A DNA stretch of 64,000 bases from Macrostomum lignano (Eukaryota): NCBI GenBank assembly GCA_002269645.1, contig NIVC01000278.1, forward strand, positions 375,070 through 439,069, in the 5' to 3' direction. Of the stretch, positions 1 to 64,000 are shown piece by piece. The translations under genes and the position numbers were made by a program. The number at the start of each line of letters is the position of its first letter. Within the stretch, counting starts at the first letter, position 1. The notes under the pieces are model-generated. The model ran no database searches and was not told the DNA's origin. It was given only the letters and a program-made list of their open reading frames with translations.

Positions 1-174
1 TAGTATCTAGGCTAAGAAGCGTCCCAAGAGTCACTTTCGTTGTCTGAACGGTGTGTTTTTGAACGGTTATGCACAAACTACACTACTTTAAATTAGCTGG
101 TAAGTAGTAATCAATGCTTTTTATAGGAAAAAAATAATACAAAAGACGAAAAATTCCCCCCCTCTCTCTCTCAC

Positions 175-424
175 CCAGGCCGTCAACGTTGCGCATTCCG
201 TCAAAAAAATGAGGCGTCGCCACCCCAGCAATGAGCAGATTGAGCAGTGCCTGGCTGCCATTTCCGCTGCGCGGATCAACAAGGGATTCTTCTTCGTCTG
301 CCACCTGTTGGCGAACTTGATCTACGCCTAGCGTGAGCACGGCTGAGTACACCAGGGATAGCAGGCCCAGTTTGCCTAGTAGGCCTTGCAGTACTGACAT
401 GACCATCTGCTCCATGAGGTCGGG
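175..424 (-). CDS. MINDY3: MINDY3 coding exon 3 (gene continues left of the window)
   Basis: GLLSLVYSAVLTLGVDQVRQQVADEEESLVDPRSGNGSQALLNLLIAGVATPHFFDG aligns by eye to MINDY3 GVLLFLYSVLLTKGIENIKNEIEDASEPLIDPVYGHGSQSLINLLLTGHAVSNVWDG. Acceptor CGCAG|CCC at 425/424, donor G|GTGAGA at 175/174. Confidence 0.92.
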
Positions 425-446
425 CTGCGGTGCGGGGTGAGGGGGC

Positions 447-6352: not shown

Positions 6353-6401
6353 GAGCCGATTTAAATAGGTATAAATATAAATAATGCGGTCTTCAACCAA
6401 C

Positions 6402-6593
6402 CTGTACAGGTGGGGGAACCTCGGACTTTCGCAGACTCTGTCGAATCTCTTCAATACTGATCACTGTAGAGCCGTCTTCTTCGCTGAGGAGCTCTTCGGG
6501 TTGGAAAACCAGCACGCAGCAGCCGCCGTTGCTGTCAGCCAGCTGCTGCATAACGGCTGCGATTGCTTGGGTAAGCAGCACTGTGGAATCGCC
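6402..6593 (-). CDS. MINDY3: MINDY3 coding exon 2
   Basis: Acceptor CACAG|GGC at 6594/6593 and donor CAG|GTTGGT at 6402/6401, both phase 0 and in frame with exons 1 and 3; GDSTVLLTQAIAAVMQQLADSNGGCCVLVF...EEIRQSLRKSEVPPPVQ. Confidence 0.8.
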
Positions 6594-6599
6594 CTGTGG

Positions 6600-7330
6600 G
6601 GATAAGGAATATGGGAGATGGGATAAGGGATATGAAAGATGATAAGGGAGATGGGAGATGGGAGATAGGAGATGGGATAAGGGAGATGGGATAAGGGAGA
6701 TGGGATAAGGGTGATGGGAGATGGGATAAGGGGGGTGGGAGATGGGATAAGGGGGATGGGATAAGGGAGATGGGATAAGGGTGATGGGAGATGGGATAAG
6801 GGGGTGGGAGATGGGATAAGGGTGATGGGAGATGGGATAAGGGGGGTGGGAGATGGGATAAGGGAGATGGGATAAGGGAGATGGGATAAGGGTGATGGGA
6901 GATGGGATAAGGGGGTGGGAGATGGGATAAGGGAGATGGGATAAGGGAGATGGGATAAGGGAGATGGGATAAGGGTGATGGGAGATGGGATAAGGGAGAT
7001 GGGATAAGGGAGATGGATAAGGGTGATGGGAGATGGGATAAGGGGGTGGGAGATGGGATAAGGGAGATGGGATAAGGGAGATGGGATAAGGGAGATGGGA
7101 TAAGGGTGATGGGAGATGGGATAAGGGGGTGGGAGATGGGATAAGGGAGATGGGATAAGGGAGATGGGATAAGGGTGATGGGAGATGGGATAAGGGGGGT
7201 GGGAGATGGGATAAGGGAGATGGGATAAGGGGGATGGGAGATGGGATAAGGGGGGTGGGAGATGGGATAAGGGAGATGGGATAAGGAAGATGGGAGATGG
7301 AATAAGGAAGATAGAGATGGGAAATAGGAT
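6600..7330. repeat. G-rich ~14-bp minisatellite (GGGAGATGGGATAA)n in MINDY3 intron 1
   Basis: Directly visible tandem units alternating GGGAGAT and GGGATAA. Confidence 0.97.
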
Positions 7331-8897: not shown

Positions 8898-9329
8898 TTT
8901 TACTAAATCTTTCAAAGTGCCACTGGCTCATCCCATATAAGCATGGTCGTAACATGACAGGTTATTTTTACTTATAAAATGAAATCTAATAATAGAATAT
9001 ACTAAACCAATATTTTAAATGAAAGACAAGCTGTTGAAACCCGCGGATTTTGAACCCGGGGAATTCTAATCTCCGGAACTACTTTTGCATGTATTCTGAA
9101 ATCTAAGGCCATACACTAACAAATTAATAGTAGGATAGAGGTAGACATAAAATGGAGCACATTCGTGTAAAATTAGGGTTTGAGGCAAACGTTGATATTG
9201 TTGGCTGGGGTACTGCGCAGAATGTCAGGCAATGTCTGTCTGACTCTAAAACATATATTGCTAAACTCTGGTCTCTCCCTGACTCTCCCTACGTCCCTTG
9301 GATCCTTTAAAATTTCTATCGTCTCTTTG

Positions 9330-9717
9330 TTTCCTTTCTTCTCTCTCATCCCTCGTCTCTCCTCTCTCTTCTCTCCTCTCTTCTCTTGTATCTTCCCTCA
9401 TCTCTCTTCCCTATTCTTTTCTCTCTCCTCTTCTCTCTCCTTTCTACTTTTCGTTTTCTCTCTGCTCTTCTCTCTCCTCTCTACTCTTTCGTTTTCTCTC
9501 TCCTCTCCTCTCTCCTCTCTCCCCCTCTTCTCTCGTCTCTCCCCTCACATCTTTCCTCTCTCTCTTTCCACTCATCTCTTTTCTTGTTTTATATCTTCTC
9601 TCTCCCCTCGTCGCCCGTCTCTTCCCTCACCTCTCTTCTCTCTCGTCTGCTCTTTCATCTCTCCTTTCTCTTCTTTTATCTTTTCTCTCTTATCTCTTCT
9701 CGTTTCTATCTGCTCTG

Positions 9718-9802
<85 letters not shown>

Positions 9803-10810
9803 CCCTCTTTATTCTCCTATTTCCTCTTCTCTCTCCCTGTCTCTCCTCTCTCCTCTAGTCTCTGTAATCTCTTCTCTCCCATCTTTCTTCTCCTCTCTAC
9901 TCTCTCCCCTCCATTCTCCTCTTTTCTCTCCTCTCGCCTCACTCACTTCTCTCTCCCTTTGTCTCTCCTCTCGTCTCTGTAATCTCTTCTCTCTTATCTC
10001 TCTTCTGTTCTCTCTATTCTCCCATCTCTCGTCTGTTCATTTTCGTCTCTGCTCTCAGCTCATCCCCCCTCTTTCATCTGTCATCTTTACTGTCTTAATG
10101 TTCTTTCATTTTGTCCTCTGTACTCTTTTCTTTCACCTCTTTTGTCTCCTCACTTTCCTTTCTCCTTTCTTCTCTTCTCTTCTCTTCCCTCTTCTATATA
10201 CTCTCTCCATCTCTTGTCTCGTCTCTTCTCTCTCCACTCTCCTCCTTTATCTCTCATCTCTCATTTCTCATCTCTCCTTACACCTCTCTCATCTGTACAA
10301 CTTTATCTCTTCTCTCTTCCATTCTCTCTCTTATCTCTCCTTTCTCCTCTTTACTAACTCCTCTCTACTCGCTCCTCTACACTCTCCTCTCCACTCGCTA
10401 CTCTACTGTCTACTCTCTCCTATCTACTCTACTGTCTACTCTCTCCTATCTACTCGCTCCTCTACTCGCTCCTCTACTCTCTCCTCTCTACTCGCCCCTC
10501 TACTCGCTCTTCTACTCTCTCCTCTCTACTCGCTCCTCTCTACTCTTTCCTCTCCACTCGCTACTCTACTCTCTACTCTCTCCTCTCTACTCGCTACTCT
10601 ACTCTCTCCTCTCTACTCGCTCCTCTCTACTCTTTCCTCTCTACTCGCTCCTCTACTCTCTCCTCTCTACTCGCTCCTCTACTCTCTCCTCTCTACTCTC
10701 TCCTCTCATCGTCCTCACTCCCTCATCTCTCCTATTATCTTTTATCTTTTCTCTTATTCCCTCTCTCACCTCTCCTCTCTTTTCGAATAGTCTATTCCTT
10801 CTTCTCCCCA
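9330..10810. repeat. CT-rich low-complexity tract including (CT)n at ~9722-9802 and CTCTACT-type repeats
   Basis: Nearly purine-free plus strand; the long ORFs are L/S/F-rich artefacts. Confidence 0.95.
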
Positions 10811-10879
10811 CTCTCAACTGCCCCTCAGCCATAAGCTGGATTCTTTTCTGGACTTAGAGGTAAAAGTCTGCCCATTCCT

Positions 10880-11790
10880 GCTTAGAAAGCCAGTTTGTGG
10901 GACGTAGTACTCTCATGGCTGTTCTCATGCTTTGATCATGTCACCTTTCTTGCCAATTTGCAAGCCCTGAAAAGAATTTTTGTATCTTCAGCTCCACTGC
11001 AGTCTGCATCAGTCTAACAACCAAGGAAATACGCATTTCTTAGGAGGCCATTTAAAATTTACACAGTACCTTTAAAAGAAACCTAAAATTTCCATGGTGT
11101 GCCTAATTTAGTAGGGTTATATTGCATTGCATCGCATCGCCTTTTCATAAATCTTTCGCTTTTACAAACCATGCTGGATTCCCTCGATTTGCCAATTGCC
11201 ATCCAGTGTTAAACTGCTGCAGAGTTTGCCAATACAGAGGGGAGGGCAGTGGTTAGAATTCTCACTAAACTGTTATGGCTAAACGTAGCCTCTCCACTCT
11301 CGGGGTGCAGAGAAGGTTATAAATAAAGCTATTCCAAAACACTGTACATTCGCTATGTACATTGAGCCCTATCGCCTGACCCTTCGTCTGGACTGCGGGA
11401 ATGAGTGAGTTGAGCGCCACAAACAACAGAAAAAGCAGACAAACTTCACATGCTTACAGTTTCTGTTCTGATTGAGTTACAGAGTTAAGACTTAACATTT
11501 AGACAGAGAATGAGTCAATGAAGAATTGTGTCAAGTTTGAAGTCAATCGCTTCACGTGGAGCAAACTTATGGCAGCCGAAAGTTAGTCATTTTAAACCCC
11601 TTTTTCACATCTGGGCCCAGATCGGGAAAGAGAGGCAGGCGGGCGGAGGTTGGGGTGGCTGCCTCGCTGAAAAAACAGCCTAACTTTAAAAGTGCACAGC
11701 GGCTTTCAGGAGTAACTTTGAGATTTGAAATTTTACACAATTGTGTCAAAATAGTTGAAAATTGCCTGTGTCAAATTTGAAGAGAATCGG
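10880..11790 (+). repeat. Dispersed repeat family (probable non-autonomous transposon); other copies at ~12745-12910 (inverted), ~21470-21660 (inverted), ~30720-31512 (inverted, internally duplicated) and ~32620-33040 (direct)
   Basis: Shared blocks such as GCAGACAAACTTCACATGCTTACAGTTTCT and GTACTCTCATGGCTGTTCTCATGCTTTGATCATG found in both orientations. Confidence 0.8.
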
Positions 11791-40728: not shown

Positions 40729-43700
40729 TCCTACCTATCTATCTATCTATAGGAACCTTCGTTTAACTTGACTTTGCGTGGTCGGAATTTCGTGGGGTTT
40801 GCTGCATTCGATGCGTATTGATGGTGCGCTGGTACACAAAATTTTGCTAAGAAATTACTTTAATTTTTAGGGATTAAATATTCGAAAAACTCGATTTTTG
40901 CCCCGTTTTTTTAAGTTTAAACAGTTTTTTTCGATTGAGAAGCATTCTGACTGCCGATGGAATTGTATTGCATCAAAACTAAGTGCCAACTATAGCATTG
41001 GTTCTCTACACTCGCGTGGAGAGCTACAAGCGTTGAAAGGTTGCGCAACAAATTTTAGCTATTGAAATTGAGGGGCGGGTGTTGCTATTCAATTAGTCCT
41101 GGGCATTGGCTTGGTTGTTAATTTTAATGCATCAACTTGCAGGCCTCTCACTGTAGCTGGCGCTGAATGTACACCTTTATAAATTTGACTGCTTTAAAGC
41201 AGGAATATCAAACCGTTGTTTGTGCTTCGAGTTTTTCACTTTCAGAAGAGAGCCTTGTATTGCTGGAAAGAGCTTGAAACGCTGAGTTCGGGAATATAAT
41301 TTCTTTGCTTAGATTCAAAAAATTAAAAGCACAGCATTAAAAAGAAGATTCCTATGAATTTTACTTTATATACTCATTGTACGCTCTCCAATATCGCAAA
41401 CCCCTATTTTATCGCAACTCCACAATTCAAGCCAGCGCCATTGAATTTAGATTTAGATGGCGTAATCATATTGGTGATTTTATTTGAAACTGATACAGAC
41501 TGGCTGTGAAATTTTGTCATAACTGCTTCGTGTGATTTACTCTGTGCGTGGAGTTTTGAAAGTGTTGAATTATGTAAGTGCTACAATTTATGTTATTAAA
41601 ACAATGAGAGATAGCCTAAAGCTCGAAAGGTAAACAGACTGACCTGTTAATGCAGCGACGTGGGTTCGAATTTTTAAATTGTAGAAGTTTTTTATAAAAA
41701 AAATTTATAATTTAAATTTAATAAAGTTTAATTTTAAACTTTTTAGCTAAAGAAAACTAAAAAAACGTCAGGTAAATCAGGCAGAAGAGAAGCTACGAGT
41801 ATTCATGTAGTATATTCAAAACTTTTTATTAAACTGAGATGCCAAGGCTAAGGGGAATTGCTGAGATATCAAGACGTGAGGGGAATTGCTGAGATGTCAA
41901 GACTTAGTGGGGGAATTACTGAGATATAAGGGCTTACTGAGAGAATTACTGAGATGCCAAGGCTTAAGAGTGAATTGCTGAGATGTCAAGGCTTGGAGGG
42001 AATTGCTGAGATGTCAAGGCTTAAGAGTGAATTGCTGAGATGTCAAGGCTTAAGAGTGAATTGCTGAGATGTCAAGGCTTGGAGGGAATTGCTGAGATGT
42101 CAAGGCTTAAGAGTGAATTGCTGAGATGCCAAGGCTTAAGAGTGAATTGCTGAGATGTCAAGGCTTGGAGGGAATTGCTGAGATGTCAAGGCTTGGAGGG
42201 AATTGCTGAGATGTCAAGGCTTAAGAGTGAATTGCTGAGATGTCAAGGCTTGGAGGGAATTGCTGAGATGTCAAGGCTTAAGAGTGAATTGCTGAGATGC
42301 CAAGGCTTAAGAGGGAATTGCTGAGATGTCAAGGCTTAAGAGTGAATTGCTGAGATGCCAAGGCTTGGAGGGAATTGCTGAGATGTCAAGGCTTAAGAGT
42401 GAATAGCTGAGATGCCAAGGCTTAAGAGTGAATTGCTGAGATGTCAAGGCTTAAGAGTGAATTGCTGAGATGCCAAGGCTTAAGAGTGAATTGCTGAGAT
42501 GCCAAGGCTTAAGAGGGAATTGCTGAGATGTCAAGGCTTAAGAGTGAATTGCTGAGATGCCAAGGCTTAAGAGTGAATTGCTGAGATGCCAAGGCTTGGA
42601 GGGAATTGCTGAGATGTCAAGGCTTAAGAGTGAATAGCTGAGATGCCAAGGCTTAAGAGTGAATTGCTGAGATGTCAAGGCTTAGAGGGAATTGTTGAGA
42701 TGTCAAGGCTTAAGAGTGAATTGCTGAGATGTCAAGGCTTGGAGGGAATTGCTGAGATGTCAAGGCTTAAGAGTGAATTGCTGAGATGTCAAATCTTGGA
42801 GGGAATTGCTGAGATGTTAAGTCTTGGGGAGGAATTCTATGGATTTAGGAATCTTTGAACGAGAGATGCTTCTAATGGATATCTCGAGGAGATGAGGGGA
42901 TTCTTTGGCCAAGAATTCTATTCATGGGCGGATTATTTGGATGAGAGATTCTTTGGATTCCTTGAATGGGGGATTCTGTTGATGGGGATTATTTGGACGT
43001 GGATTTTTTGAACGGGGGTTTTTTAGATGAGGGTATTCTTTGGCCAATTATTCTTTTGATGGGAGAATCAATGGATAATGTGGATGGAGATTCTGTGGAT
43101 GGGGATTCTTTGGACGTGGATTATTTGCATGAGGATTCTTTGGAGGGAGATTCTTTAGATAGGAATGGATGGGGATGGATAGGAGGATTCTTTGGATACG
43201 GATAAATAGGGGCATTTTTTCGCTAGGGATGGATGGGGGATTCTTTGGATATGGATGGGTGGGGGATTCTTGGGATATGGATGGATGGGGGGTGTGGCGG
43301 AAAGTGCAATTCATTATTTTCAATCAATTACTCCATCTCAATCTGCGCCGACTCTATTATGCCCGCACATTGATTTTCTCCAAATACGCCCGTATCGATT
43401 TAATGTACGCAAATGCGATGTACGCAAGCCAGGTGAACTTACTCTTTTTTACACGGCCTTCATTAACTATTTAATAAATAAACTGTAGCCCAGTGAGGCT
43501 CGGATCGTGGTTTTTTGTGCATAGCGCAGCGTCGCTAAAAGTTCAATCCAAATTAACTACAATTCAACTACAGGGGGATTCTTTGGATATGGATGGGTGG
43601 GGGATTCTTTCGATGGGAATTCTGTGAATGAGAGATTCTTTAAATAGGGATTCTTTTGAAGGGGATTCTTTGCATGTGAGATGTTATGGATGGGCAATGG

Positions 43701-45542
43701 ATTGGATGGGAAATTCTTCAGATAGGAAAATTCCTTGAATGGGGAATTCTTTGGATCCTGGATTCTATTGATAGGGGTTCTTTGGATGGGGATTCTATGC
43801 ATGTAAGATTCTATGGATGGGCAATTCTTCAGATAGGAGAATTCCTTGAATGGGGAATTCTTCGGATCGGTGATTCTATCGATGGGAGGTTTTTTGTTTT
43901 TTTGGATGGCGGATTCTTTGCATGTGAGATTCTTTGTATCGTGGATTCTATGGGTGGTGTATTCTTTGGATGAGGGATTCTTTGTATGGGAAATTCAGTT
44001 GGGTGAAATTTTATTGCGTGGAAAAACTGTGGCTGGAGTTTGGACGGAAAGCCCCAACGGGAGTTGGAATTGGCTAGCTGAGGAAATTGCTTCATTAATC
44101 TTGCTGGGGGTACTTTCTATCAGGGGTTGCTTGCTATCGGAAGGACGCTTGCTCTTGGGGGATGCTTGCTCGGAAGAGAATTTTAAGATGTCAAGATTTA
44201 CGAGGGGAATTATTGAGATACATGTATAAAATCTTACCTTGGGGAATTAATGACATGTGAAGGCTTAAGAGGGACTTGCTGAGGTGTCAAGTCTTGTTGG
44301 GGAATTGCTGAGATGCCAAGGCTTAAGAGGGAGTTCCTGAGATTTCAAGACTTGGGAAGGAGAATTACTCAGATGTCAAGGCTTAGGGGAATTTCTGAGA
44401 CGTCAAGGCTTGTGGGGGCAATCGCTGAGATGTCAAGGCTTGTGGGGGGAATTTGTTGAGGTGTGAAGGCTTAAAAAGGAATTGCTGAGATATAAAGGCT
44501 TACTGGGAGAATTACTAAGATATCAAGGCTTGGGGAGGGGAATTACTGAGATGTCAAGGCTTTGGACGGGGAGAAATTGGTAACATGTCAAGGTTTGCGC
44601 CGGAATTGCTTAGATGTCAATGCTTGGGGAAAATTTCTGAGGTGTCGAGGCTTGGGGGAATTGCTGAGATGTTAAGTCTTGGTGGAATTCTATGGATTGA
44701 TGATTCTTTGGATGAGGGATGCTTCTAATGGATAAATTTGGATAGGTGATTCATTGGGCAATTTCTTCGGAGGGGCATTGTTTCGATGGAGGGTTTTTTG
44801 AATGGGGGATTTTTTAGATGTATGATTCTTTAGATGGGGGTTATTTGAACGGGGGTTCTTTAGATGAGGGGATTCTGGGATTCTTTGGCCAATTATTTTT
44901 TTGATGTGGGATTATTTTAGGATGTGAATTCTTTGGAGGGGGGATTTTTCGGAGGAGCAATTTTTTGGATATGGATGGTTGAGGGGATTATTTAGATAGG
45001 AATGGATGGGGAAATTCTTTGGATAGGGATGAATTGGAGGATTCTTGGGATAGGGATGGATGGGCGATTCTTTAGATAGGGAAGTGTGGGGGATTCTTTG
45101 GATAGAGGGTTTCTGTGGATGAGGGATTTCTTGAATAAGGGATTCATTGGACGGGGAATTCTTCAGATGAGAGGATTCCTTCAATGGGGAATTCTTCGGA
45201 TCGGGGATTCTATCAATGGGATGGGATGGGGATGGGACGGGAAGGATTGGTATTCTTTGCATGTGAGATTCTATGGATGGGCGACTCATTAAATAGGGAA
45301 TTCTACAGATAGAGGATTCCTTGAATGGGGAATTCTTCGGATCGGGGATTCTGTCGATGGGGGGTTCTTTGTATGGGGATTCTTTGGATGAGGGTTTTTT
45401 GCATGTGGGATTATTTGCATCAGTGATTTTATGGATGAGAGATTCTTTGGATGAGGGGTTCAGTTGGGTGAATTTCTTTTGCATGGGAAAACTTTGGTAG
45501 GAGTTCTGACGGAAAGCCCCAACGGGGGTTGGAATTGGCTAG
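40729..45542 (+). mobile_element. Non-autonomous composite Helitron with two 3' termini
   Basis: The first ~700 bp are homologous to 45570-46300. Contains two [29-bp array + GGATTCTT block] modules, each ending in a hairpin plus CTAG (44074-44077 and 45539-45542). Confidence 0.7.
41826..42822. repeat. 29-bp minisatellite (GAATTGCTGAGATGTCAAGGCTTAAGAGT)n; degenerate second array at ~44190-44690
   Basis: Directly visible tandem units with GGAGG/AAGAGT variants. Confidence 0.97.
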
Positions 45543-45572
45543 TCCATTATACTAAAAATCAAAACTATGTAC

Positions 45573-45618
<46 letters not shown>

Positions 45619-47042
45619 GTCTATAGGAACCTTCGTTTAACTTGACTTTGCGTGGTCGGAATTTCGTGGGGTTTTCTGCATTCGATGCGTATTTTAGGTG
45701 CGCTAGTACACAAAATTTTTCTAAGAAATTGCTTCATTTTTTAGGGATTAAATATTCGAAAAACTCGATTTTTGGCCCGTTTTTTAAGTTCAAACAGTAA
45801 TTTCCGATTGAGAAGCATTCTGACTGCCAATGGAATTGTATTGCATCATAACTCAGTGCCAACTATAGCATTGGTTCTCTTCACTCGCGTGGAGAGCTAC
45901 AAGCGTTGAAAGGTTGCGCAACACATTTTAGTTATTGAATTGAGGGGCGGGTGTCACTATTCAATTAGTCCTGGGCATTGGCTTGGTTGTTAATTTCAAT
46001 GCATCAACTTGCAGGCTTCTCACTGTAGCTGGCGCTGAATGTACACCTTTATGAATTTGAATGCTTTAAAGCAGGAATGTTGAATCGTTGTTTGTGCTTC
46101 AAGTTTTTTACTTTCAGAAGAGAGCCTTGTATTGCTGGAAAGAGCTAGAAACGCTCAGATCGGGAATGCAATTTGTTTGCTGAGATTCGAAAAATTAAAA
46201 GCACAGCATTAAAAAAGAAGATTTCTATGCATTTTACTTTACATACTCATTGTACACTCTCTCATATCGCAACCCCTACCATCACTCAATCAAGCGCCAT
46301 TGATAAGCAAGGAGGGTCTGCTCACGGTGTTGCGCAATAAAGCTCAATACTATATGCTCTTGGTTGATATTGAATTCAACCGTAATTGAATGTACAGTTG
46401 TTGAAACCCCAAACACTGGAGTCACGAGCGCTCAATTCATTGAAGTTGCAGCGCACATTTAATTCACTTTGAATGTGCTGTTAAGGCAAGACTTTAGCCT
46501 GCCTTTTGAACTGGGTTTTCTATAAAGATTCATTTCATCAGCAAAATATCAGATTATAATCTTCTCACCTACCTTTATTAGTACACTGACAACTACTGGC
46601 TTAATTAAACAGTTTCTATCTACACAATTTGATACATAACTGAGATATCTGGTATATTCTGATACAAATTATTATCTACTGAATCGCCATCGAGTATTAC
46701 TTTTTTACATCAAATTATTCATTTCATACTTTAGTACCGCAAGTTGTATAATTATTTGTAAATTGTATAATTATTTTTAAAATGTAGCAACTACTATTGC
46801 AACTTTATTCATTCATACTTTAGTACCGCAGTTGCATAATTATTTGTAAATTGTATAATTATTTGTAAAACGTAGCAACTACTATTGCAACTTTATTCAT
46901 TCATTCTTTAGTACCGCAGTTGCATAATTATATTTGTAAAAAGTAGCAACTACTATTGCAACTATATTATACTTTTATTCCGCATTCTTTTTACCGTATT
47001 TTGTATATTTCTATCCGTACTTACTAAGTATCAATAATAGCT

Positions 47043-50000
47043 ATGGGTCGCCGTGGAGCAAGTCATTTAAAGAAAAGCCGTGAGGCAAAAAAAAGGCGAC
47101 GTGAAGAATCTAGCGCTGAACGCGAGGCCCGTTTGGAAACACGAAGGCAGCGGGACGCCGAGCGCCGAGCCCGTGAAACTGACGCCGAGAGAGCTGCTCG
47201 ACTCGAGGAGCTGCGACAGCGGGACGCAGAGCGCCGGGCTTGCGAGACTGACGCCGAGAGAGCTGCTCGACTCGAGGAGCTGCGGCAGCGGGACGCAGAG
47301 CGCCGGGCCTGCGAGACTGACGCAGAGAAAGCTGCTCGACTCGAGGAGCTGCGACAGCGGGACGCAGAGCGCCGGGCTTGCGAGACTGACGCCGAGAGAG
47401 CTGCTCGACTCGAGGAGCTGCGGCAGCGGGACGCAGAGCGCCGGTCTTGCGAGACTGACGCCGAGAGAGCTGCTCGACTCGAGGAGCTGCGACAGCGGGA
47501 CGCAGAGCGCCGAGCTTGCGAGACTGACGCCGAGAGAGCTGCTTGGATCGAGGAGCTGCGGCAGAGGATTGCTGCCAACCGAGCCTGCGAGACTGACGCC
47601 GAGAGAGCTGCCCGCCTGGAAGACATTCGGCAGCGAGAAGCTGACCGCCGTGCTTCCGAAACAGGATCTGAGCGTTTGGATCGTCTCGAGGCTGAGCTAT
47701 TACGTCGCCGGAGCATTTGGGCTTCGAGGTAAGTCTACTGATGTATGCCGGTTACTCTTCTGGTTTTGTTGATTTAAACTGCACCGTTTTTCTCTGGTCT
47801 CTTTTTCCTTATTGTATAGTTTATGATTGAGTATTTCTGCATTACCTTGAATTTTTGCATTTTGCATTTAGTTTTAGCAAATTTCATTAAGAATACTTAA
47901 GTAATAAGTAATACCTGTAAAATATAATTTACCTTTATCAGTTCAGCACCTGTACATATCTTTAGTCACTATTTGTGATCTGACTGACCATTTTCCCTCT
48001 TAATTTTAGACAGGAAAATAGTGAACCAGCAGCAGCGGCTCAGGTACCTTTTAATCAATTGAGAATAGTTCCCATAGCCGGTGATGGAAATTGTTTTTTT
48101 CACGCTGTTTCTGATCAGTTGCGAGGCACCGCACTTGAAACCGATGCTGCTTCATTGAGGCACAATTTGTCAAGCCGCGCGGCAGAGCTGTGCCACAGTT
48201 GATTGCCGAAGGCTTTGTTTTCCCAGAGAATGCGGATGCCATAATCGAAGCTTCATTTACAGAGGGAACTTATGTGCCCGATGAAATCGTGCCCCTGTTA
48301 AGCCGCTGTTTTCAGGTAGACCTGGTTATTTACCAGCGCAATGGAAGTGTGCTGCAGCACTTTATGTCCTTCGCGCAGCCTCCTCTGGCTGTTGTGCGCC
48401 TGGTTCTGAGCAATGAACACTATGAATCTCTGAGACTTCGAGATCCTTTGCAGGGAATAGAGCCTATGGAGGACCGGGAGTTTCCCGCTCCTGCTGCAAG
48501 CAGAGCACCTGCTGCAAGGACCAGAGTCAACTGGCGCAAGAGACCTGCTGGCTCAGCTGCTGCTACTTCTGCTCCTGGCGCTCGTGCGGAGACTCAAGCT
48601 GGAAACAAAGCGGAAGCTCAGCAGAGGTAATGTCTGAAAGGCGGCGATCATGCTAAACAAGTTTTTACTCTTTATAAATTAATAATCCCAATAAAGGACA
48701 GGGATCAGGCAAGTGAGCCACAAACGATACTTAAGCAGGCATGCTTATTGAGGCTTTTATAACAGTTTTTACATAGAAAATAATTGTTCCGTTCATTCTC
48801 AAATGAACGAATGCTTAAACCTCCCTGCGGCTAACTTGATTTTTTCGTCCGCAATTTTTTCTATGCGTAGTCTTAAAATTTTTAACTTTAATTTACTCTA
48901 AAGAGACGCTTTCAGTGGGTGGGAAAAACTTTTTAATTTAATTAACCGACGCTTTGCCGAAAATTTATTGCAGGAACTCCGACCAGCCAAGACCAGAAGT
49001 GCCGACCCATCAGTGTGGCCGCATGAATTCTGTGTGCAAGTTGTGCGGCGCATTGCGCTGGAACAAGGAAGCCGAGTTTTGCTGCGCCAAGGGCAAAGTG
49101 AAGCTGCCTGTCAGGACTGTTCCGCCAGTGTTGGCTGACCTGTACACCGGAAGGCATGAGAAGAGCAAGGAGTTCCTGGCCAACATCAGGAGCTATAACT
49201 CGGTTCTGCACCTGACGTCATTCGGTGCTGATCTGCGACCCACGCCTGGTGGGTGGAACCCGAGCTTTGTGATCAGCGGAAAGTTGTACCACAACACTGC
49301 GCCGCTGCTAGCTGATGCTCCGAATGCGCCTAGGGGCTGGCAGGTGTACTTTATGGACCGCGAGCTCGAAAGCCGCCTTAGCCTCAGCCAAAGAGTGAAG
49401 CCTGAGCTGCTGCAGTTGCTGCAAGGATTGCTTCACGAGTGCAATTCCTATGTGCGGAGTCTGCGGGCTGCAGCGCAGCGAATCAGCGAAGATCCTCAGC
49501 TGTGCGATGCGTGGATTGTGATTTACCCCGATCGACGCCCGGCTGGTGAACACATTCGGTAAGCTGCATTTTTCAAACATGGATATTTTAGTAGAATCTT
49601 CTAATATAGTATAATAAATTTGATTGAAACCCCATCTGTCCACAATAAGGCGGTACAATCTGCCCACGGCAAACGAGGTCGGAATCCTAATTGTCGGGGA
49701 TGCTGAGGAAGCACCGAACAGTCGTGAAATCGTCATCCAACTGCGAGGAGGTGACACCAAGCGCATTTCTGAGACGCACAGATCCTACGATCCGCTAGAG
49801 TACGTCCTTCTGTTTCCGAACGGAGAGAGCGGCTGGCATCCCGAGCTTCGCATGACCAATGGCCGCAAACTGACTCCCATGAAGTATTACGCCAGCGAGA
49901 TCATGGTGCGAGCCGACCAGTTCAACGTGCTGCACCACGGCCGGCGGCTGTTTCAGCAGTACCTGGTGGATCAGGCGGCCAAGATCGAGTCGGAGAGGCT

Positions 50001-53000
50001 TCTCTATTTGCGTACTCATCAGGACGACCTTCGCAGCGAGACCTACAGTGGGTTGCGTGATGCCCTGTTTGCAGCTGATGGACTGCACACTGGCAAGGAG
50101 CCGAAGGAAATTGGAAAGCAGGCGCCCGTGTTTCTCTCCTCAAGCTTCGTGGGCGGACCGCGATATCTAATGGAGCGGCTCCAGGACGCCATGACTTACG
50201 TTCAGAAATTCGGCAAGCCGGATCTGTTCGTGACGGCGACTTGCAATCCGAAGTGGCCAGAGATCACCGCTGAACTGTTGCCAGGACAGCGGCCAGAGGA
50301 TCGTCCTGACATCGTTACTCGTGTCTTCGAGCTTAAGAAGAAGGCCCTCGTGTCGGAGCTCAGACATCGCTTTGGAGTGGAAGCCGCGCACGTTTGTTCT
50401 CTGGAATACCAGAAGCGCGGTGAGTTCAGTTGATCAGAAATAACTTATTCATTACACTTTGCTTTCTGCTGAGTTCAAGCCTCACTGATGTTTTTACCTT
50501 GCTCTAGCATGCTCCCTTCCAGTAAATATTTTTTCTGATTTGACTTTCATTTTACTGAAGGACTTCCACATGTGCACTTTCTACTGTGGCTGGCCAGCGG
50601 ACACCGAGTAACTCCAGATCGGTACGACGCGCTTGTGTCTGCGGAGATCCCAGACCCACAGCTTGAGCCCGTGCTGCATGAGCTGGTCAAGACGCACCTC
50701 ATCCACGGACCATGTGGGGCGGATAACCCAGCCTGTCCCTGCATGGAGAAGGGGAAGTGTACCAAAGGCTTCCCGAAGGACTTCCAGTCGGTGACGATGT
50801 CTAGCGAAACCGGTTACCCGTTTTATCGGAGACTGTCACCAGAAATGGGCGGCTTCACCGTCGACAAATTATGCAAGGGCCGAACCATTCGTATGGACAA
50901 CAGGTGAGTGAAAAAGAGGATTTCCACATGAGTGAGCTGCCCGGCCGTCTTAGCACTATTTTAACAGCTAAGTTCTTACTATTCTGGTTCAGAAAATTCT
51001 AACATTGCTTCTTTCTTCTCAGCTGAAAAATTTACTATCTTGAATTTAAAGCATTCATTTAAAATTATTAACAAGCAACGAACCCGGAATTCCCTTCAAA
51101 ACGCAAGGTGGGTCGTGCCATATAATCGAGAGCTGTTGCTCATGTTCAACTGCCACCTGAACGTTGAAGTTTGCGCGACGGTTCGAGCCGTGAAGTACAT
51201 CATTAAATATTTACTCAAGAATGGCGACATGGCAACCTTCAAAGTTGACGCTGCTAAGAATTCAGCGAAACCCCAGGCGCCTGCAGCTGCAGCTGAAAGT
51301 CAGCCGATAGCTTCTAACAAGCAGCAGCGCACTGCCAATGAGAAGGCTGCCAAAGAGCCACGAGACGAAATTGATGAGTACCTGTCTGGTCGCTACATCG
51401 GGCCCATGAAGGCTGTGAATACCATTTTGGGCTTTGAAGTAATTATCTTTTTGACTGTGGCTTACAAACTTTCATCATAGTTATGCAGTGACAAAACTTA
51501 AGCTGTGTTTCTCGAGTGTTAACTTATTTACTTCCCAAAGCTCTTTTGCCATTTCCCACCATCTCCCAGGTGCACAACCGCTTCCCACCGGTCATTCGCC
51601 TCGGCGTACACAAGCCGGGAGAGCAGCTTGTCTACTTCAACGAGCAGACCGCGGCGGCCAAAGCAAGAGCGCCTCGAGATTCGACTCTGACAGCATTCTT
51701 CAAGTTGTGCCTCAGTGACGCTTTTGCTCGGCGTCTGCTCTACACGGAGGTGCCGTCCTATTTCGTCTGGCACCAAACTGAGCGCGCGTGGCGCCGAGGC
51801 AAGATGGGCGACGAAGTCGAAGGTCACCCTGGTGTGAAGCGCAGCAAGAACATCTCTCGGATGTACACGGTGAGCCCGAGGGCAGGGGACTTGTTTTACA
51901 TGCGCCTGCTTCTCCTGCATGTCCGAGGGCCCACCAGCTTCGAGTCGCTGCACACGGTGGATGGAGTGCTGCACACGGATGCCAAATCTGCCTGCATGGC
52001 ACTCGGTCTGCTGCATCGTGACGACCATTGGCAACGATGTCTGGCTGAGGCTGTCCAATCTCGCATGCCAAGAGCCCTCAGGCACCTACTCGCTGTCATT
52101 CTGATCTGGGGAGAGCCGGATAGCGGACTGGACCTGTGGAACGCATTCGCAGAGGACCTTGGCGAAGATCTACGCTACCACAACCGTGATCTAAGTACAG
52201 AAGAGGTCACCGACATGACGTTGCGCGAGCTGCAAAGCCTGCTGACCTCTATGGGCGGTCGCAGCTTGCGAGAGTACGGGCTGCCGGCCGCCTCTGCCAT
52301 GCCTCAAGTAGGCCCGATGCAATTCGACACGGACGAGCAGGCTGAGATAGCGAGGACGCGCCTGCCAACGCTGACCGACGAACAGAGGGCCGTGTACGAG
52401 GCAGTGACTGCCGATCTGATTGCCGGCTCTGGCGGACTGCATTTTCTGGACGCTCCAGCTGGCTCAGGGAAGACCTATTTGCTAGAGGTTTTGCTGGCGT
52501 TTGTAAGAAGCCGCGGAGAAGTCGCCCTGGCCGTAGCGTCATCTGGCATTGCAGCCACTTTGCTACCAGGTGGACAGACGGCGCATTCCACGTGAGTTTT
52601 AAACTTCATGGTTTTTAATTTTGCTACATTTAACTTTCTGCATGTATTGGTGCATAGTACATGCAATCTATCTATATAACGGCATGATTCGAGGTTTTGA
52701 TTTTTCTTTAAAATTAAATCAAAGAAAGAAATATAAAAGTTGATTGTAATTTTTTTCAGCTTCACAATCTGCCGAAACAATCTCAGAAAATCGATTGCTT
52801 ACATTCAAGAAAAAATTCTGATGGCCTGTGCACAATTTCATTCTCTCCAGTTTCAAGATCCCAGTTCGACTCGTTCGCTCGGAGAAGGACGTCTGCTCGA
52901 TTAGCTCGCAGTCAAAGCAAGCAGCGGTGTTGCGGACAGTTCGGCTCATCGTCTGGGATGAGATTTCAATGGCCAACCGGAAGGACCTGGAGACTGTCGA

Positions 53001-54212
53001 ACGAAGTCTGCGAGACGTACGAAGGCAAGATCGCCCTTTCGGTGGAGCTGTGATTGTGTGCTCCGGAGACTTTCGACAACTGCTGCCTGTCGAGAAAAGC
53101 GGAACGCGAGCCAACAACGTGTTTGCGTGCGTCAGCCGATCCAAGTTTTGGCCATTGTTTCAGCGGCATCGCCTGAGGACCAACATACGGCTGCTGAGGA
53201 GTTCCGATGCGGCACTGTATGAGCGCTACTCGAGACTTCTGATTCAGGTGGGATGTACTCTGTACTATTTATACCGTACTTTTGATTGCTGTAGGTTGTT
53301 TATTTTCTACCTGGCTTTTCTAATAATAGATTACGTAACCAGTGATTTTTGATATCTAAAACCAACTGTTATTTATGGTTATACTTATCAAGTCTTAATG
53401 TTGGAAACGTAATTTTGCTTTCTCTTTTATCCGTTTTTCGTTCACAGATCGGTTCTGGTTTGGTCCCAGAAGATTCGGGCGGAAACATTTCGCTGCCTTC
53501 CGAGATCTTCTTGCCAGCAGAGGCCAGCCTGACGGACCTTATCAAATTCGTTTATCTGTCATTTGAGGCCTCGGCGGAGAGAGACGTCTACTTTGCGAAT
53601 AGAGCCATCCTGGCACCCTACAATGACTCCGTCAATGCCATCAATGAGCAGTGTCTGGCCTTGTTCCCTGGGACACAGCGCGAATACCGATCAGTGGACA
53701 GCGTTGCAGACGAGGATTCGGCAACTCACTTCCCGCCAGAGTTGCTGAACCAGCTCGATGCGCCAAATTTTCCAACGCACCTGCTGAGACTCAAAGTCGG
53801 CATGCCAGTTGTGCTCCTGCGCAACCTCAACCCACCGCGGCTTTGCAACGGCACCCGACTCATTATCTTAGCGCTGGGCGAGAACGTGCTGCGCTGCAAA
53901 GTGGCTGCCGGCCAGTTCACCGGCGATGAGATCCTGCTGCCGCGGATCCCTCTGGTGCCGAACAACGCGGACCTGCCCGTCGCATTCAAACGTCTGCAGT
54001 TTCCGGTGAAGCCAAGCTTTTGCCTGACTATCCACAAGTCCCAGGGGCAGAGCTTGGAGACTGTCGGCATCGATCTGACTGTGGGATGCTTTGCTCACGG
54101 ACAGCTCTACACTGCTCTGTCTCGAGCCAAGAATGCAGCGAATGTCCGAGTCAGGATGCCGGGAACCACGACAAAAAATGTCGTTTATCCAGAGATTCTC
54201 ACACGAGATTAA
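47043..54212 (+). CDS. Helitron RepHel protein: STPR-like 23-aa repeats, OTU cysteine protease, zinc finger, HUH Rep, Pif1 (SF1B) helicase; 9 exons, ~1838 aa, one 1-bp frameshift near 48190
   Basis: Exons 47043-47728, 48010-48626, 48974-49558, 49650-50419, 50561-50903, 51108-51438, 51570-52591, 52851-53247, 53448-54212, all GT-AG with matching phases. Motifs: GDGNCFF/EHYESL (OTU), PDLFVTATCNPKW, EYQKRGLPHVHFLLW, VKYIIKYLLK (Rep), APAGSGKT, WDEISM, GDFRQLLPV, LCNGTR, TIHKSQGQS, HGQLYTALSR (Pif1). Confidence 0.95.
47150..47640 (+). repeat. 69-bp coding tandem repeat (~7 units) in RepHel exon 1
   Basis: Encodes (ETDAERAARLEELRQRDAERRAC)n. Confidence 0.97.
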
Positions 54213-55112: not shown

Positions 55113-55309
55113 CGTCTTTCTCATTTCAATAGCACCACTTATTTTACGAGTACAATATCGATTTAATTTTCCTTTCTTAATTATCATGACTAAGTGGAAA
55201 GTCTTAGAGCTCAGTAGGAGAGTCTTTAAATAAGTAGGAAATTATTGACTCACTGAGTTTACTGAATTAAGATACTGACTGATCTATTGCTTAACAGACT
55301 GAGTTGCGC

Positions 55310-56000
55310 TAATGTGGGAATGCTGCAGATGGGAAAACGCTGCTGCTAAGGGAATGCTGCTGATGGGCGAATGCTGCTGATGGGGGTATGCTGCTGATGG
55401 GGGAATGCTGCAGGATTGGGGAAAGCTGCATGATGGGGGAATGCTGTTGATGAGGGAACGCTGCTGCTAGGGGAATGCTGCTGATGGGGGAATGCTGCAG
55501 GATGGGGGAATGCTGCATGATGGGGGAATGCTGTTGATGGAGGAATGCTGCTGATGGGGGAATGCTGTTGATGGGGGAATGCTGCTGATGGAGGAATGCT
55601 GCATGATGGGGGAATGCTGTTGATGAGGGAACGCTGCTGCAAGGGGAATGCTGCTGATGGGGGGAATGCTGCTGATGGGGGAATGCTGCTGATGAGGGAA
55701 TGCTGCTGATGGGGGAATGCTGCAGGATGGGGGAATGCTGCATGATGGGGGAATGCTGCTGATGGGGGAATGCTGCAGGATGGGGGAATGCTGCATGATG
55801 GGGGAATGCTGCTGATGGGGGAATGCTGCTGATGGGGGAATGCTGCAGGATGGGGGAATGCTGCATGATGGGGGAATGCTGTTGATGAGGGAACGCTGCT
55901 GCTAGGGGAATGCTGCTGATGGGGGAATGCTGTTGATGAGGGAACGCTGCTGCTAGGGGAATGCTGCATGATGGGGGAATGCTGCTGATGGGGAAATTCT
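55310..56000. repeat. ~17-bp minisatellite (GGGGAATGCTGCTGATG)n
   Basis: Directly visible. Confidence 0.96.
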
Positions 56001-56751
56001 GTTGATTGTGAAATCTTCTAATGGAGGAATGTTGCTAATCGAGTTGGCAGGCAGATGGTAGAGAATTCGCAAAACAGATTGGAGTGACATTTATAAGCAC
56101 TAAAAAGCTGAGCAACAGGATTACTTTTAGAAATAAGAAGCACACTGAACCTGCTATTTTTTTGAGTATGATTATTTTCACTGTCTGTTCGGGAAAAAGA
56201 TTTTTCCTTTGAGAGAAGAAGTTCGATTTCTCACTTTTCAATTCACTACTTATTAGACAAAATTTTTACTGAATAATACTCGTATTGACAGAAGTCAAAT
56301 TAAGAATCAGAATAAAATTAAACTTAGATGGGTTGTATAGTCGGGCGTATGTATGTGACTCACGCCACACTATTAGTGCACGCGCCCTCGCAAGATCGAT
56401 TGTGATTGGCTGGACGATTGTTTGATTTCTGCCTTACCCCAAACCAGTCTGAGCTATGCTGGTGGTCGCTGATCGTGGCAAAGCGATCTTAATGTTGGTT
56501 TGGTAATGCCTAACTTTGAGAATTTTACAATTGCGTCACAGTTTCATACCTAATAGGGCTGGAATATTGATTACCAGACTTCTCACCCCTGTAAGTCCCT
56601 TGCGTTGCACTTTTTCAATCTCGCCATAAATAAAAGCTAATATAAATATGGAGTGCCAAGTGCGAGACAAAAGTAAAACAATTTTATTGAATAGAAGTTA
56701 TCTACTGTACCTCTACTACTTTTCTATTAACTTGAAGTTAAATATTTGAGA

Positions 56752-60498: not shown

Positions 60499-61047
60499 AA
60501 ATTTTATATAAGTGTAATTCTTTCCCTTCTGCGGATACAAAATACTTTTTCAGCGACTGTAGTGAGTGAATAAATTCAAAGTCAGTAGAAGGCATGAGGG
60601 GGCTTTTGGGACAAAATTTTTCACGTCCTCCATAATCCCATTAAATCCATCCATATTATCCCTGACAGAATCAGAAAAAAGGGGGGTCGCACTCGCTCAC
60701 AAAACGTCCTCCATAATCCCATTAAATCCATCCATATTATCCCTGACAGAATCATGAAAAAGGGGAGGGGCCGCACTTGCTCTGAAAACTTCGAACATAA
60801 TCCTATTAAATCCATCCATATTATCCCCGACAGAATCAGACAGTGGACACCTGTTATGCTCACTGACACTGACATCATCCACCAACATCCACCCATAGCA
60901 TCTTCGAAACAATCAGAAAAAAAAATCTGCATTCTTCTCCCCATGGGGCCCACATTCAATCCGAAGCGGCGAAACCAGATCCCTAAAACTTTAAATCCCC
61001 TAACCCAGGGTCCTTACCCTTTGAAAAAAATTAAATTCTCAATAAAA

Positions 61048-61285
61048 ATGTTTCCAGTTGTCTCTCCAGGTTCTTATTATACTCAGCCTAATCCATTGTA
61101 CAAATCCAAGTACCAATGCAAACTTGAATGCAGCGAGTACATGAGAAAATATTGGCCCAACGTTGATATCAATGTCCCTAATATTAATCTAGCTCTCCAA
61201 AGACACTGGTTTTTATAAGTATGGAGTAGTCATTAACGATTACGACAGCTACTATAACTTTGCAGAAATCATTAAGCAATTGTGA
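61048..61285 (+). pseudogene. Small Maverick ORF convergent with the penton (one frameshift)
   Basis: AATAAAAATG start; MFPVVSPGSYYTQPNPLYKSKYQCKLECSEYMRKYWPNVDINVPNINLAL / FYKYGVVINDYDSYYNFAEIIKQL*, ending 4 nt from the penton stop. Confidence 0.45.
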
Positions 61286-61289
61286 TTTC

Positions 61290-62150
61290 TTACATTCTCT
61301 CAATGATCAACGTCAATACAAACTCTTCACCGTTGAAATCAACACCCACCCCATCTTCAGTCTCAAACTGTAGCACAATCTCGTGAATCTCCTTATTACT
61401 CAATACAACTCTTTTCACTGGATTTGGTTTCTCTACCACCATCTGTCCTCCAGCAACAGAGTTGGAGATGTACAAAATATTCGTTCGCTTTCCCTTAAAT
61501 ACCCAATCAAGACTGAGATTGCTTCTGATTAGAATATTCAAACCCTTTACAATGTCTGCAATATTGGGTGCTAAGAACAAACCGTTTACACTTTCCCGGA
61601 CCATTCTAACAGTCCCCGATGCTTGAGTGGCGGTCCGCGCCGCGGATTCTGCCTTATAAACTTTCTTCTCGAATCCCAGTTCCCTATACCAAGTGTCATC
61701 TTTAAACTCAACCTCCGCATCTTTGTGAACTTGCATGACCACTCTCATTACAGTGAGATCATAGGTTAGTTTGACAGGGAACAGTTTCTTCTCTGGCTTA
61801 CTCGCATCAGGTGTCTCAAAATGGCCTCTCTTAGTAAAGACATTTTCTAGAAAGTTATTGTAGGTATCCACACTTTGCGTGCTCACATGGAATACCACAG
61901 GGTCTGCTGCTGCACCTTTCCATTTGTAATAAAACTTATTATTTGCTGCCATCACATTGGGAACGTTTGACCAACCAGTGAAGTCGTTAAGATAGACATG
62001 GTAATTAGCGCCTGGATCCAGGCGAATCGCCTGCTCTAATTTTTCAACAAACATCCCGTTTGAGTCATTAATTCGCCCAGTTATTGTAATAGGAATGCTC
62101 TCCTTAGAGTGTGAAACAATGTTGTTTAGTCTTTCGGCTATAGCTTCCAT
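61290..62150 (-). CDS. Polinton minor capsid (penton, single jelly-roll) protein, 286 aa, intact
   Basis: SNVPNVMAANNKFYY...NILIRSNLSLDWVFKGKRTNILY...VVEKPNPVKRVVLSNKEIHEIVLQFETEDGVGVDFNGEEFVLTLIIER resembles the Maverick penton C-terminal pattern; lies directly downstream of the MCP. Confidence 0.82.
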   Translation of the reverse strand: MEAIAERLNNIVSHSKESIPITITGRINDSNGMFVEKLEQAIRLDPGANYHVYLNDFTGWSNVPNVMAANNKFYYKWKGAAADPVVFHVSTQSVDTYNNFLENVFTKRGHFETPDASKPEKKLFPVKLTYDLTVMRVVMQVHKDAEVEFKDDTWYRELGFEKKVYKAESAARTATQASGTVRMVRESVNGLFLAPNIADIVKGLNILIRSNLSLDWVFKGKRTNILYISNSVAGGQMVVEKPNPVKRVVLSNKEIHEIVLQFETEDGVGVDFNGEEFVLTLIIERM

Positions 62151-62168
62151 TTTTTGTCCTAAAAATAT

Positions 62169-63455
62169 TTAAACTTTACTGGACGAATTGTTGATCATGT
62201 TAAGCTTCACCTTCCTCTCAAATGCATAGACAATGTACAGGTCCACGGGTGTTGCGGCAGTCCTTTCAATGTTAGTCACGATATTCACAGGGCTGTTATC
62301 AGTAGGCATTTGTCTGGCAGACACATCAGCGCCAAACATCGGATATAGAGTTCCATATTGAAGAGCAGTGATAGCAATTCCATTGTTCTCTTTCACAGCC
62401 AAGTCGACCAACTCGCTGTAAAATTTGCTAATCTTGTTCTGACTGAAATTTCCATTTTGTGGCAGTGCAGGGTAAAGATTATCACTGATTTCATGCTGAA
62501 TGGACCGCACGTCTCCATGCATGTAGCGTATAATGCTATTTGGGTTTCTCATGTTAATAATAATATACCTTGGATTGCTGAATGATCCCTCTTTAATGCA
62601 GATGTTTGTTCTAGTTTCGTTTCGCTCATCTCGACACATGTAGGCTGTGTATGCAACATCAATGTCCTTCTCTATTGCCTTGAGATAATCCGCTTTTAGT
62701 GCAGTCTTTGGCTCAATGACTTCCAAATACAGCTCGATTCCGGTTAGCTTCACAGCCATCCCAGTGTGGTCCGCCCCAGTCCACAACACTCTACTGCGAT
62801 CATCTCTAGTCAGTCTAAATGTGTAGCTAAAGTTACTAGTCAGTCGATTAAATGTATTACAGAATCCACTCATGAATCTCAGTGGTACAAATACATCAAC
62901 AGACCGATACAGCGGGTTCTTAGCAGCATCATCACCACCTTGCAATGCATAGTTGTATCTCTTCTTCCTCTTTTTATAGCCACTGTCATTGATGTCTCCT
63001 TCTTTTTCATCTGCAATAAAACCCGCACCACTTCCTAATTGAATAAAATCAGGATTCTCGATCAAACAATGAGCGTCATAGACAATTCCAAAGTTGGCGA
63101 TTCGCTCCAACTCAGTGCTCCCATTCGATACACTAAACTCCTTGAACATGTACGCCAAAAGTTACTGATCAGAGCCACATCCGCATCATGCTTGTCAACG
63201 TTAGCACGAGCGCATCCGCACCACCCTTTGTCTTGAATTGAAATGTCATATGGAAGCCGCTCTTAAGACTGGTGCACACTAACCAAAGACGAACATCCAT
63301 TGTATGTAAATGTCAGTGTTTGACCAGGACCAAGATTAGTTTCATTCTGATTTTCCTGACTGGGAACTCTTACCTGAGTCGCTTTGATTGTGCTATCATC
63401 ACTCAAAATAGGCTTGTTAATTTTGTAGAAAACTTGGTGTCAGTGGGTCGTTCAT
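62169..63455 (-). pseudogene. Polinton major capsid (double jelly-roll) protein; N-terminal ~100 codons broken by about 3-4 frameshifts
   Basis: ATG at 63455; FYKINKPILSDDSTIKAT...LTFTYN..., then SNF/LAYMFKEFSV...VDVFVPLRFMSGFC...FRLTR...NPRYIII...LYP...YPMFGADVS, typical of Maverick MCP motifs. Confidence 0.82.
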
Positions 63456-63582
63456 TTTTTACTAAAAATAAAATAAAATAAGAAATGAAGCGAAAAAGTA
63501 CACAGCAGATATCTTAATTGGAGAAGCTAGCACAAGCAGAGAAACGAGTTACCGGCTAATAAATAAGGAGCAACAATCTACA

Positions 63583-64000
63583 ATGAGTTTGTCCAAGCAG
63601 CCACAGAGTTTCATAAACCCGGGTATGGAGAAGCTAAGAAAAATATTGATCAGGTCAAAGAAACTATCGACGACATACAGGAAACAAGTGCAAAAGGTTT
63701 TGGGCAAAATTCCAGAAGCACCACAGATACAGCCGCAACCACAACAAACCACAACCAGTATTCAATACTAAAAGTGACAGATAACATTTTTGGACCAGTA
63801 AGAGCGTGTCGAACATGATGCGGAATGTATTTGGAATAAGTTGTGGAGAAAAACATTTTAATGAACCAGTGGAATATTATATCGACATAAATAAGAAACA
63901 TATTTCTGTTGTCAAAGGCTCGGAAACTAAGAGCATTCCTTTCACAGAAACCTTACTGACTTTTATGACCAAGAACCAAGAGAAGAATCTCGGACAAACA
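63583..64000 (+). pseudogene. Divergent Maverick ORF fragment (frameshifted), truncated by the window edge
   Basis: MSLSKQPQSF...DNIFGPV...FNEPVEYYIDINKKHISVVKGSETKSIPFTETLLTFMTK; loosely resembles a conserved Maverick accessory ORF. Confidence 0.35.

Follow-up and report, generated by a model that had tools for sequence, protein, structure and literature searches.

Animal Mavericks (Polintons) are described as elements of about 16 kb (mean 16.9 kb in vertebrates) that end in terminal inverted repeats (TIRs) with an AG-rich 6-bp motif, are flanked by 6-bp target site duplications (TSDs), and carry intronless pPolB, integrase, ATPase, protease, major capsid protein (MCP) and penton genes (PMC8097293, PMC10748475). 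Their capsid genes are under purifying selection, which in fish has been read as spread via particles (PMC8097293), and in the top vertebrate cases their copy number reaches 172-287; Maverick virions were unobserved as of 2021 (PMC8097293). The Alpha and Beta adintoviruses encode adenain, a hexon-like MCP, a penton, an rve integrase, a packaging ATPase, a parvovirus-like PLA2 and a pX-like protein, with PLA2 as a marker of the Alpha module (PMC8502044). Among flatworms, Orthopolintovirales insertions are on record in Rhabditophora (bioRxiv 10.1101/2025.04.19.649669), and the Polintons of Schmidtea are silenced by piRNA (PMC8532177).

We analysed a stretch of 64,000 nucleotides from Macrostomum lignano (hereafter the window), which forms the last 64 kb of contig NIVC01000278.1 so that base 64000 is the contig end, and searched the genome assembly of 764 Mb in 5269 contigs. 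At its right-hand end the window contains the terminal part of a copy from an abundant Maverick family, a finding that is real but ordinary; the contig stops after 3.4 kb of this copy. Within the literature searched, no account of this family was found, though Repbase or supplementary files may catalogue it.

Every defining feature of Mavericks listed in PMC10748475 and PMC8097293 was found. TIRs, a TSD within the expected 5-8 bp and a length within the expected 13-25 kb are present at the level of the family, with one TIR in the window copy; pPolB, rve integrase, packaging ATPase and adenain are present in sister copies, outside the window; a single-jelly-roll minor capsid protein is seen in a model of the window penton and a double-jelly-roll MCP in a model from a sister copy. 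Size, end motif, intronless gene set, capsid gene constraint and a copy number near the top vertebrate cases are all shared with animal Mavericks, as the full protein list above is shared with adintoviruses. Gene order, in contrast, differs from that of animal Mavericks, penton and MCP lying inside one TIR and integrase and PLA2 by the other, and the AGTAGA end motif is intermediate in type to (AGT)2 and (AG)3. No fewer than 94 MCP genes are open here, whereas vertebrate genomes hold at most 38 fully intact elements, the two figures being different measures. Unlike the adintovirus arrangement, the PLA2 and pX matches have an ORF each, with the integrase lying between the two.

Capsid genes of the window copy and the gene set of its family

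The TIR of the window copy abuts the penton stop, contains tandem units of 81-84 bp and is 78-93% identical to both ends of paired sister copies (Table 1). Next to it lie the penton and MCP genes, neighbours that are both intronless, as the original prediction had stated when it proposed a Maverick/Polinton capsid module here; its description of the penton as fully open was equally accurate. Upstream of the open stretch of the MCP, about 100 codons are split among three frames as far as the ATG at 63455; the 330-aa part is 97% identical to a sister copy. The third gene, of about 400 aa, is open for 398-410 aa in most sister copies; in the window it has an early in-frame stop created by substitution, which lies in a private stretch, plus private indels. 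It has no family above cutoff among Pfam-type profiles, NCBIfam and PHROGs and no usable match in the ESM Atlas.

Table 1. Features of the element copy at the end of the window, in window positions
Feature	Position	Strand	Remarks
Terminal inverted repeat (TIR), ~700 bp	60584..61283		begins 5'-AGTAGA
81-84-bp tandem units inside TIR	60589-60837		
Penton (minor capsid protein)	61290..62150	-	open frame, 286 aa
MCP (double jelly roll)	62169..63455	-	open here for last 330 codons only; 428 aa in sister copies
Open stretch of MCP	62169-63161	-	330 codons
Four single-base indels in first ~100 MCP codons	63150..63440	-	private vs 19/19 paralogues
Ten further private 1-2-bp indels	63460-63983		
~400-aa element gene, 5' part	63485..64000	+	divergent from MCP; cut by contig end

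Structure prediction, one of the checks proposed at the outset, gave jelly-roll folds for the penton and the sister-copy MCP. An AlphaFold (AF2) model of the penton, built from the window copy with 13 sequences (pLDDT 66), matched the mavirus penton 6g41 (E 2.8e-6), adenovirus penton bases and Sputnik chain N in Foldseek, and viral minor capsid proteins in BFVD (top E 6.6e-10). The MCP model, made from a sister copy rather than the window copy (10 sequences, pLDDT 51), matched PBCV-1 VP54 (E 1.5e-9) and the MCPs of iridovirus and Sputnik (E about 1e-9) in Foldseek. In a VIA search, which is independent of Foldseek, it aligned to the faustovirus MCP with Z 11.7 and rmsd 6.2 over 313 residues, and 12 of the 12 top rows were double-jelly-roll capsid or scaffold proteins. 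Both models are of modest confidence, with TM-scores of 0.26-0.47, and all their top matches are concordant. At the level of profiles, the MCP matched PF21738 (double jelly roll-like) under the cutoff (E 7.5e-4), NCBIfam and PHROGs held no match for capsid or cargo ORFs, and the ESM Atlas neighbours of the MCP, at 0.97-0.98, had recognition under threshold and serve as a lead only. A 137-aa ATG ORF also runs antisense across the 5' portion of the MCP gene (window about 63070-63481, plus strand) and ends just before the ~400-aa gene. It is present at L003:3258-3992 and in most sister copies, has no family match, and may be a by-product of the MCP sense frame.

A DNA search yielded 47 matches among the 40 scored of 719 candidates, most of them near-complete and 92-97% identical. 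In 19 other copies that were fetched, which as best-scoring matches are biased to intact copies, the MCP frame was open for at least 429 codons in every case, with a 428-aa ATG frame in 18, and a 287-aa penton was present in 18. The search for intact paralogues that had been recommended was successful: across the genome, 94 of 98 scored MCP matches were full length and stop-free and four carried stops, a lower bound for intact genes, with 662 candidates found and 98 scored. Among ten copies chosen by their termini, the 428-aa ATG frame occurred in only three.

The family has about 175 copies; the terminal 20-mer occurs exactly 348 times in the genome (180 forward, 168 reverse), and its reversed control not once. 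The median element length was 16.1 kb for 20 hand-picked terminus pairs, which were taken from the first 100 occurrences at spacings of 11-22 kb, leaving aside shorter, longer and unpaired ends. An exact 6-bp TSD flanked 10 of 13 paired copies (3/3 and 7/10); of the remaining three, one agreed at five of six bases, one had a 4-bp match and one had no TSD. The TIRs of a pair were 91-100% identical over their best alignment, so the insertions differ in age, some of them being young.

Read from the capsid end, the gene order is penton, MCP, ~400-aa ORF, ~170-aa ORF, A32-type ATPase, coiled-coil ORF, membrane-like ORF, adenain, pPolB, pX-like ORF, rve integrase, parvovirus-like PLA2 and a variable cargo slot. 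In sister copies the integrase (PF00665, E 2-7e-9), pPolB (DNA_pol_B_2, PF03175, E 8e-14, with the motifs KxxxNxxYG and YxDTDS), packaging ATPase (Pox_A32, E 3e-6, with Walker A and B) and adenain (Peptidase_C5, E 1.6e-4) all scored above cutoff. PLA2 was found with E 6e-14 and no pX match within the same ORF, and an Adeno_PX match (E 3.8e-7) in a separate ORF of 147 aa. The pX-like ORF (L057:3769-4212) and the PLA2 ORF (L051:2616-3116) are separate genes flanking the integrase, with no fused PLA2X, the Alpha adintovirus form in which pX is C-terminal to the PLA2 domain. Extending the contig rightwards to core genes and a matching TIR, as had been suggested, fails at base 64000, but sister copies contain all of them. 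Given the jelly-roll folds, together with the core genes, TIRs and 6-bp TSDs of sister copies, the element is almost certainly a Maverick/Polinton with its penton and double-jelly-roll MCP genes at one end, as originally predicted.

The variable slot lies between TIR and PLA2 and was seen in 13 sister copies at the end nearest the integrase (e.g. L022:3565-4386, L051:1111-1788 and L041:834-1115). It holds an acidic-tailed ORF of 271-273 aa (clearly in two copies), a 225-aa ORF (two), a 93-aa ORF (two to three) or little. The cargo ORFs gave no family match above cutoff, no gasdermin-like match occurred in the ORFs scanned, and Rfam returned no matches for 14 loci of 10 kb, with no group I intron in those copies. 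On contig C633, two capsid modules (L006 and L007) face each other 6 kb apart with identical ORF patterns, either through an inverted duplication or as a palindrome made by the assembly.

Selection, relatives and proposed mode of life

Among same-length open copies, pN/pS was 0.113 for the MCP (17 distinct copies) and 0.192 for the penton (18). MCP variants shared between copies comprised 9 nonsynonymous and 32 synonymous changes versus 15 and 18 for singletons, shared variants being the more constrained (Fisher P 0.046); the corresponding difference for the penton was not significant (P 0.36). Across copies, both capsid genes show purifying selection, which suggests that lineages that spread needed working capsids.

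A word-indexed search found nine relatives of the MCP at 43-77% identity on short unnamed contigs, and a profile search gave 537 matches at E up to 0.001. The close clade, from ENA, Logan and JGI data (P0003-P0011, P0024), is 71-77% and 42-44% identical to this MCP and its members sit on contigs of 0.9-5.8 kb; outside it, identity drops to only 22-27% in the next tier. In a quick midpoint-rooted tree of 70 of the 98 length-filtered matches, this clade had an SH-aLRT of 100 and a long branch. Pattern matches in viral_contigs (170) and metagenome_contigs (210) included no confirmed relative, and a cluster look-up returned uninformative names. Twelve relatives of the penton were found at 55-64%.

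The polymerase was 38-46% identical to the 120 best of 526 matches, among which the named ones came from a sea slug, a leafhopper and a coral, and by its sequence is of an ordinary animal Polinton type. Its PF03175 match is weak (52 bits over about 345 positions), relatives scoring 46-65 bits or not at all. An endonuclease-VII-like domain was considered as a novelty and rejected as such, with PF02945 in 27 of the 120 best polymerase matches. The polymerase class of Beta adintoviruses and group 1 Polintons is an OTU-containing PolB that diverges from the pfam03175 type; Pfam gave no OTU match in the polymerase here, which has a Cys/His pattern that may be OTU-like. The weak PF03175 score and the endonuclease-VII-like zinc domain suggest a divergent, putatively Beta-like class. 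The MCP forms a distinct unnamed clade, and the new sequence adds to a clade without a named member in the searches made. The suggestion of an unsampled lineage therefore stands for the distinctness of the MCP, and is weakened by relatives in public data, the weak PF21738 match and the ordinary polymerase.

TSDs and selection are observed; the mode of life can be proposed from the genes present and from what is established for Polintons. Replication of a linear, TIR-bounded DNA would fall to the protein-primed polymerase, and its insertion, with duplication of 6 bp of target, to the rve integrase. MCP trimers with penton vertices would build the capsid, the A32-type ATPase would fill it and adenain would mature it, the PLA2 and pX-like proteins being likely entry and core proteins.

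A possible, if doubtful, extension is that the family is a young polintovirus of an invertebrate that has remained infectious, with a capsid clade of its own, a Beta-like polymerase combined with Alpha-type PLA2 and pX, and a swappable cargo slot. The open MCP genes under purifying selection and the TIR pairs that are 99-100% identical point in this direction. The combination would be the reverse of the chimeras described in PMC8502044. Joined to this proposal is the idea that capsid genes are kept intact more often than the polymerase, and that defective copies may act as a capsid reservoir. If the family is infectious, it would offer a tractable system for finding animal Maverick virions; as a high-copy family with many open, constrained capsid genes it is a reasonable target in that search.

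Reading frame breaks at the contig end

The frameshifts of the window MCP were predicted to be confined to its first ~100 codons, with some 330 remaining open, and this was confirmed: they are four single-base indels upstream of the 330-codon frame. Their net length change is zero, leaving the gene at 1287 nt as in paralogues. Between 61290 and 64000 the copy has 14 private indels of 1-2 bp, every one of them within the contig's final 850 bp (P about 9e-8 under uniformity, with a boundary chosen post hoc). The preceding 1.86 kb (61290 to 63150) shows no frameshifting private indel and one in-frame difference of 3 bp, and bins 61334-63333 contain only 8 private substitutions. Because all 14 lie at the end of the contig, assembly error is favoured, and we think it likely that the MCP frameshifts are consensus errors and not a biological state. 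Of the two causes first considered, early decay or assembly error, this clustering supports the second and disfavours the first.

The polymerase block of 12 copies contained 82 singleton frameshifting indels (65 of them 1-bp deletions) versus 117 substitutions, and some copies had 4-7 indels but 0-2 substitutions. Set against the ratio of indels to substitutions expected under neutrality, the singleton indel spectrum of sister copies is error-like. For a read-level check, public Logan contigs were aligned to the region. Perfectly matching contigs stop at several indel sites and then differ, for which paralogues alone suffice as an explanation. Over 62880-63620, none of the 16 matches listed (506 more exist) spans an indel. 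Near 63036, a private substitution falls inside a 57-bp Logan piece whose depth in X3 is flank-like; with fewer than 31 letters on each side, this piece does not count as bridging. A second private substitution near 62935 is uncovered among the matches listed.

The alternative that this same Maverick copy is an ordinary decaying provirus whose MCP was truly inactivated after insertion is unlikely. Real decay does exist in the family, as the stops in four of 98 MCP copies and TIR pairs 0-9% apart indicate; broken genes occur in most of the copies chosen by their termini, and vertebrate Mavericks are mostly degraded according to PMC8097293. The nonsense substitution in the adjacent ~400-aa gene is also what neutral decay would yield. 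Such decay, however, should be spread evenly and consist mainly of substitutions, whereas here 14 short indels fill 850 bp that end with the contig, none frameshifts the 1.86 kb before them, and private substitutions are few. Assembly error at the contig end thus remains the preferred explanation, under which the contrast between an intact penton and a frameshifted MCP most likely carries no biological message. Frameshifts in repeat copies at the contig ends of this assembly should be regarded as unreliable.

Capsid and polymerase genes also differ in intactness. A polymerase piece as long as the MCP ran its full length free of stops at 47 of the 100 places scored, versus 94 of 98 for the MCP, and the number of short indels per kb was 0.35-1.5 in the capsid genes, 1.2-3.2 in the polymerase and 0.9 near the integrase end. 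Three of the 100 scored polymerase matches lay inside open frames of at least 1250 aa. A conserved split of the polymerase was rejected, with break positions that vary and a hot spot at a six-base run in 4 of 12 copies. The gap may reflect either assembly accuracy near the flanks or a real retention of capsid genes. Carried further, the difference in stop-free genes and in indel density could be read as a host-domesticated or capsid-only unit that kept its capsid genes and lost those for replication, a very improbable reading: the window copy was truncated by the contig end and not by deletion, sister copies hold the whole gene set between TIRs, a few polymerases are in long open frames, and the low indel density near the integrase end better fits higher accuracy near unique flanks. 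The possibility that the MCP breaks are functional, controlling capsid production by programmed frameshifting, RNA editing or an intron, can be dismissed for practical purposes, since the zero net length that restores the original frame is outweighed by indels private to one copy (absent in 19/19 paralogues, 94/98 copies being open), by stops within the shifted frames and by similar indels that run on into the next gene.

Elsewhere in the window, long stretches of strong G- or C-skew with the look of tandem arrays and a repeated peptide occupy 1-7000, 9000-11000, 42000-46000 and 55300-56030. A Helitron Rep/PIF1 helicase gene lies in several pieces at 49624-54212 on the plus strand (Helitron_like_N, E 4e-46; PIF1, E 7e-33) and is probably split by introns.
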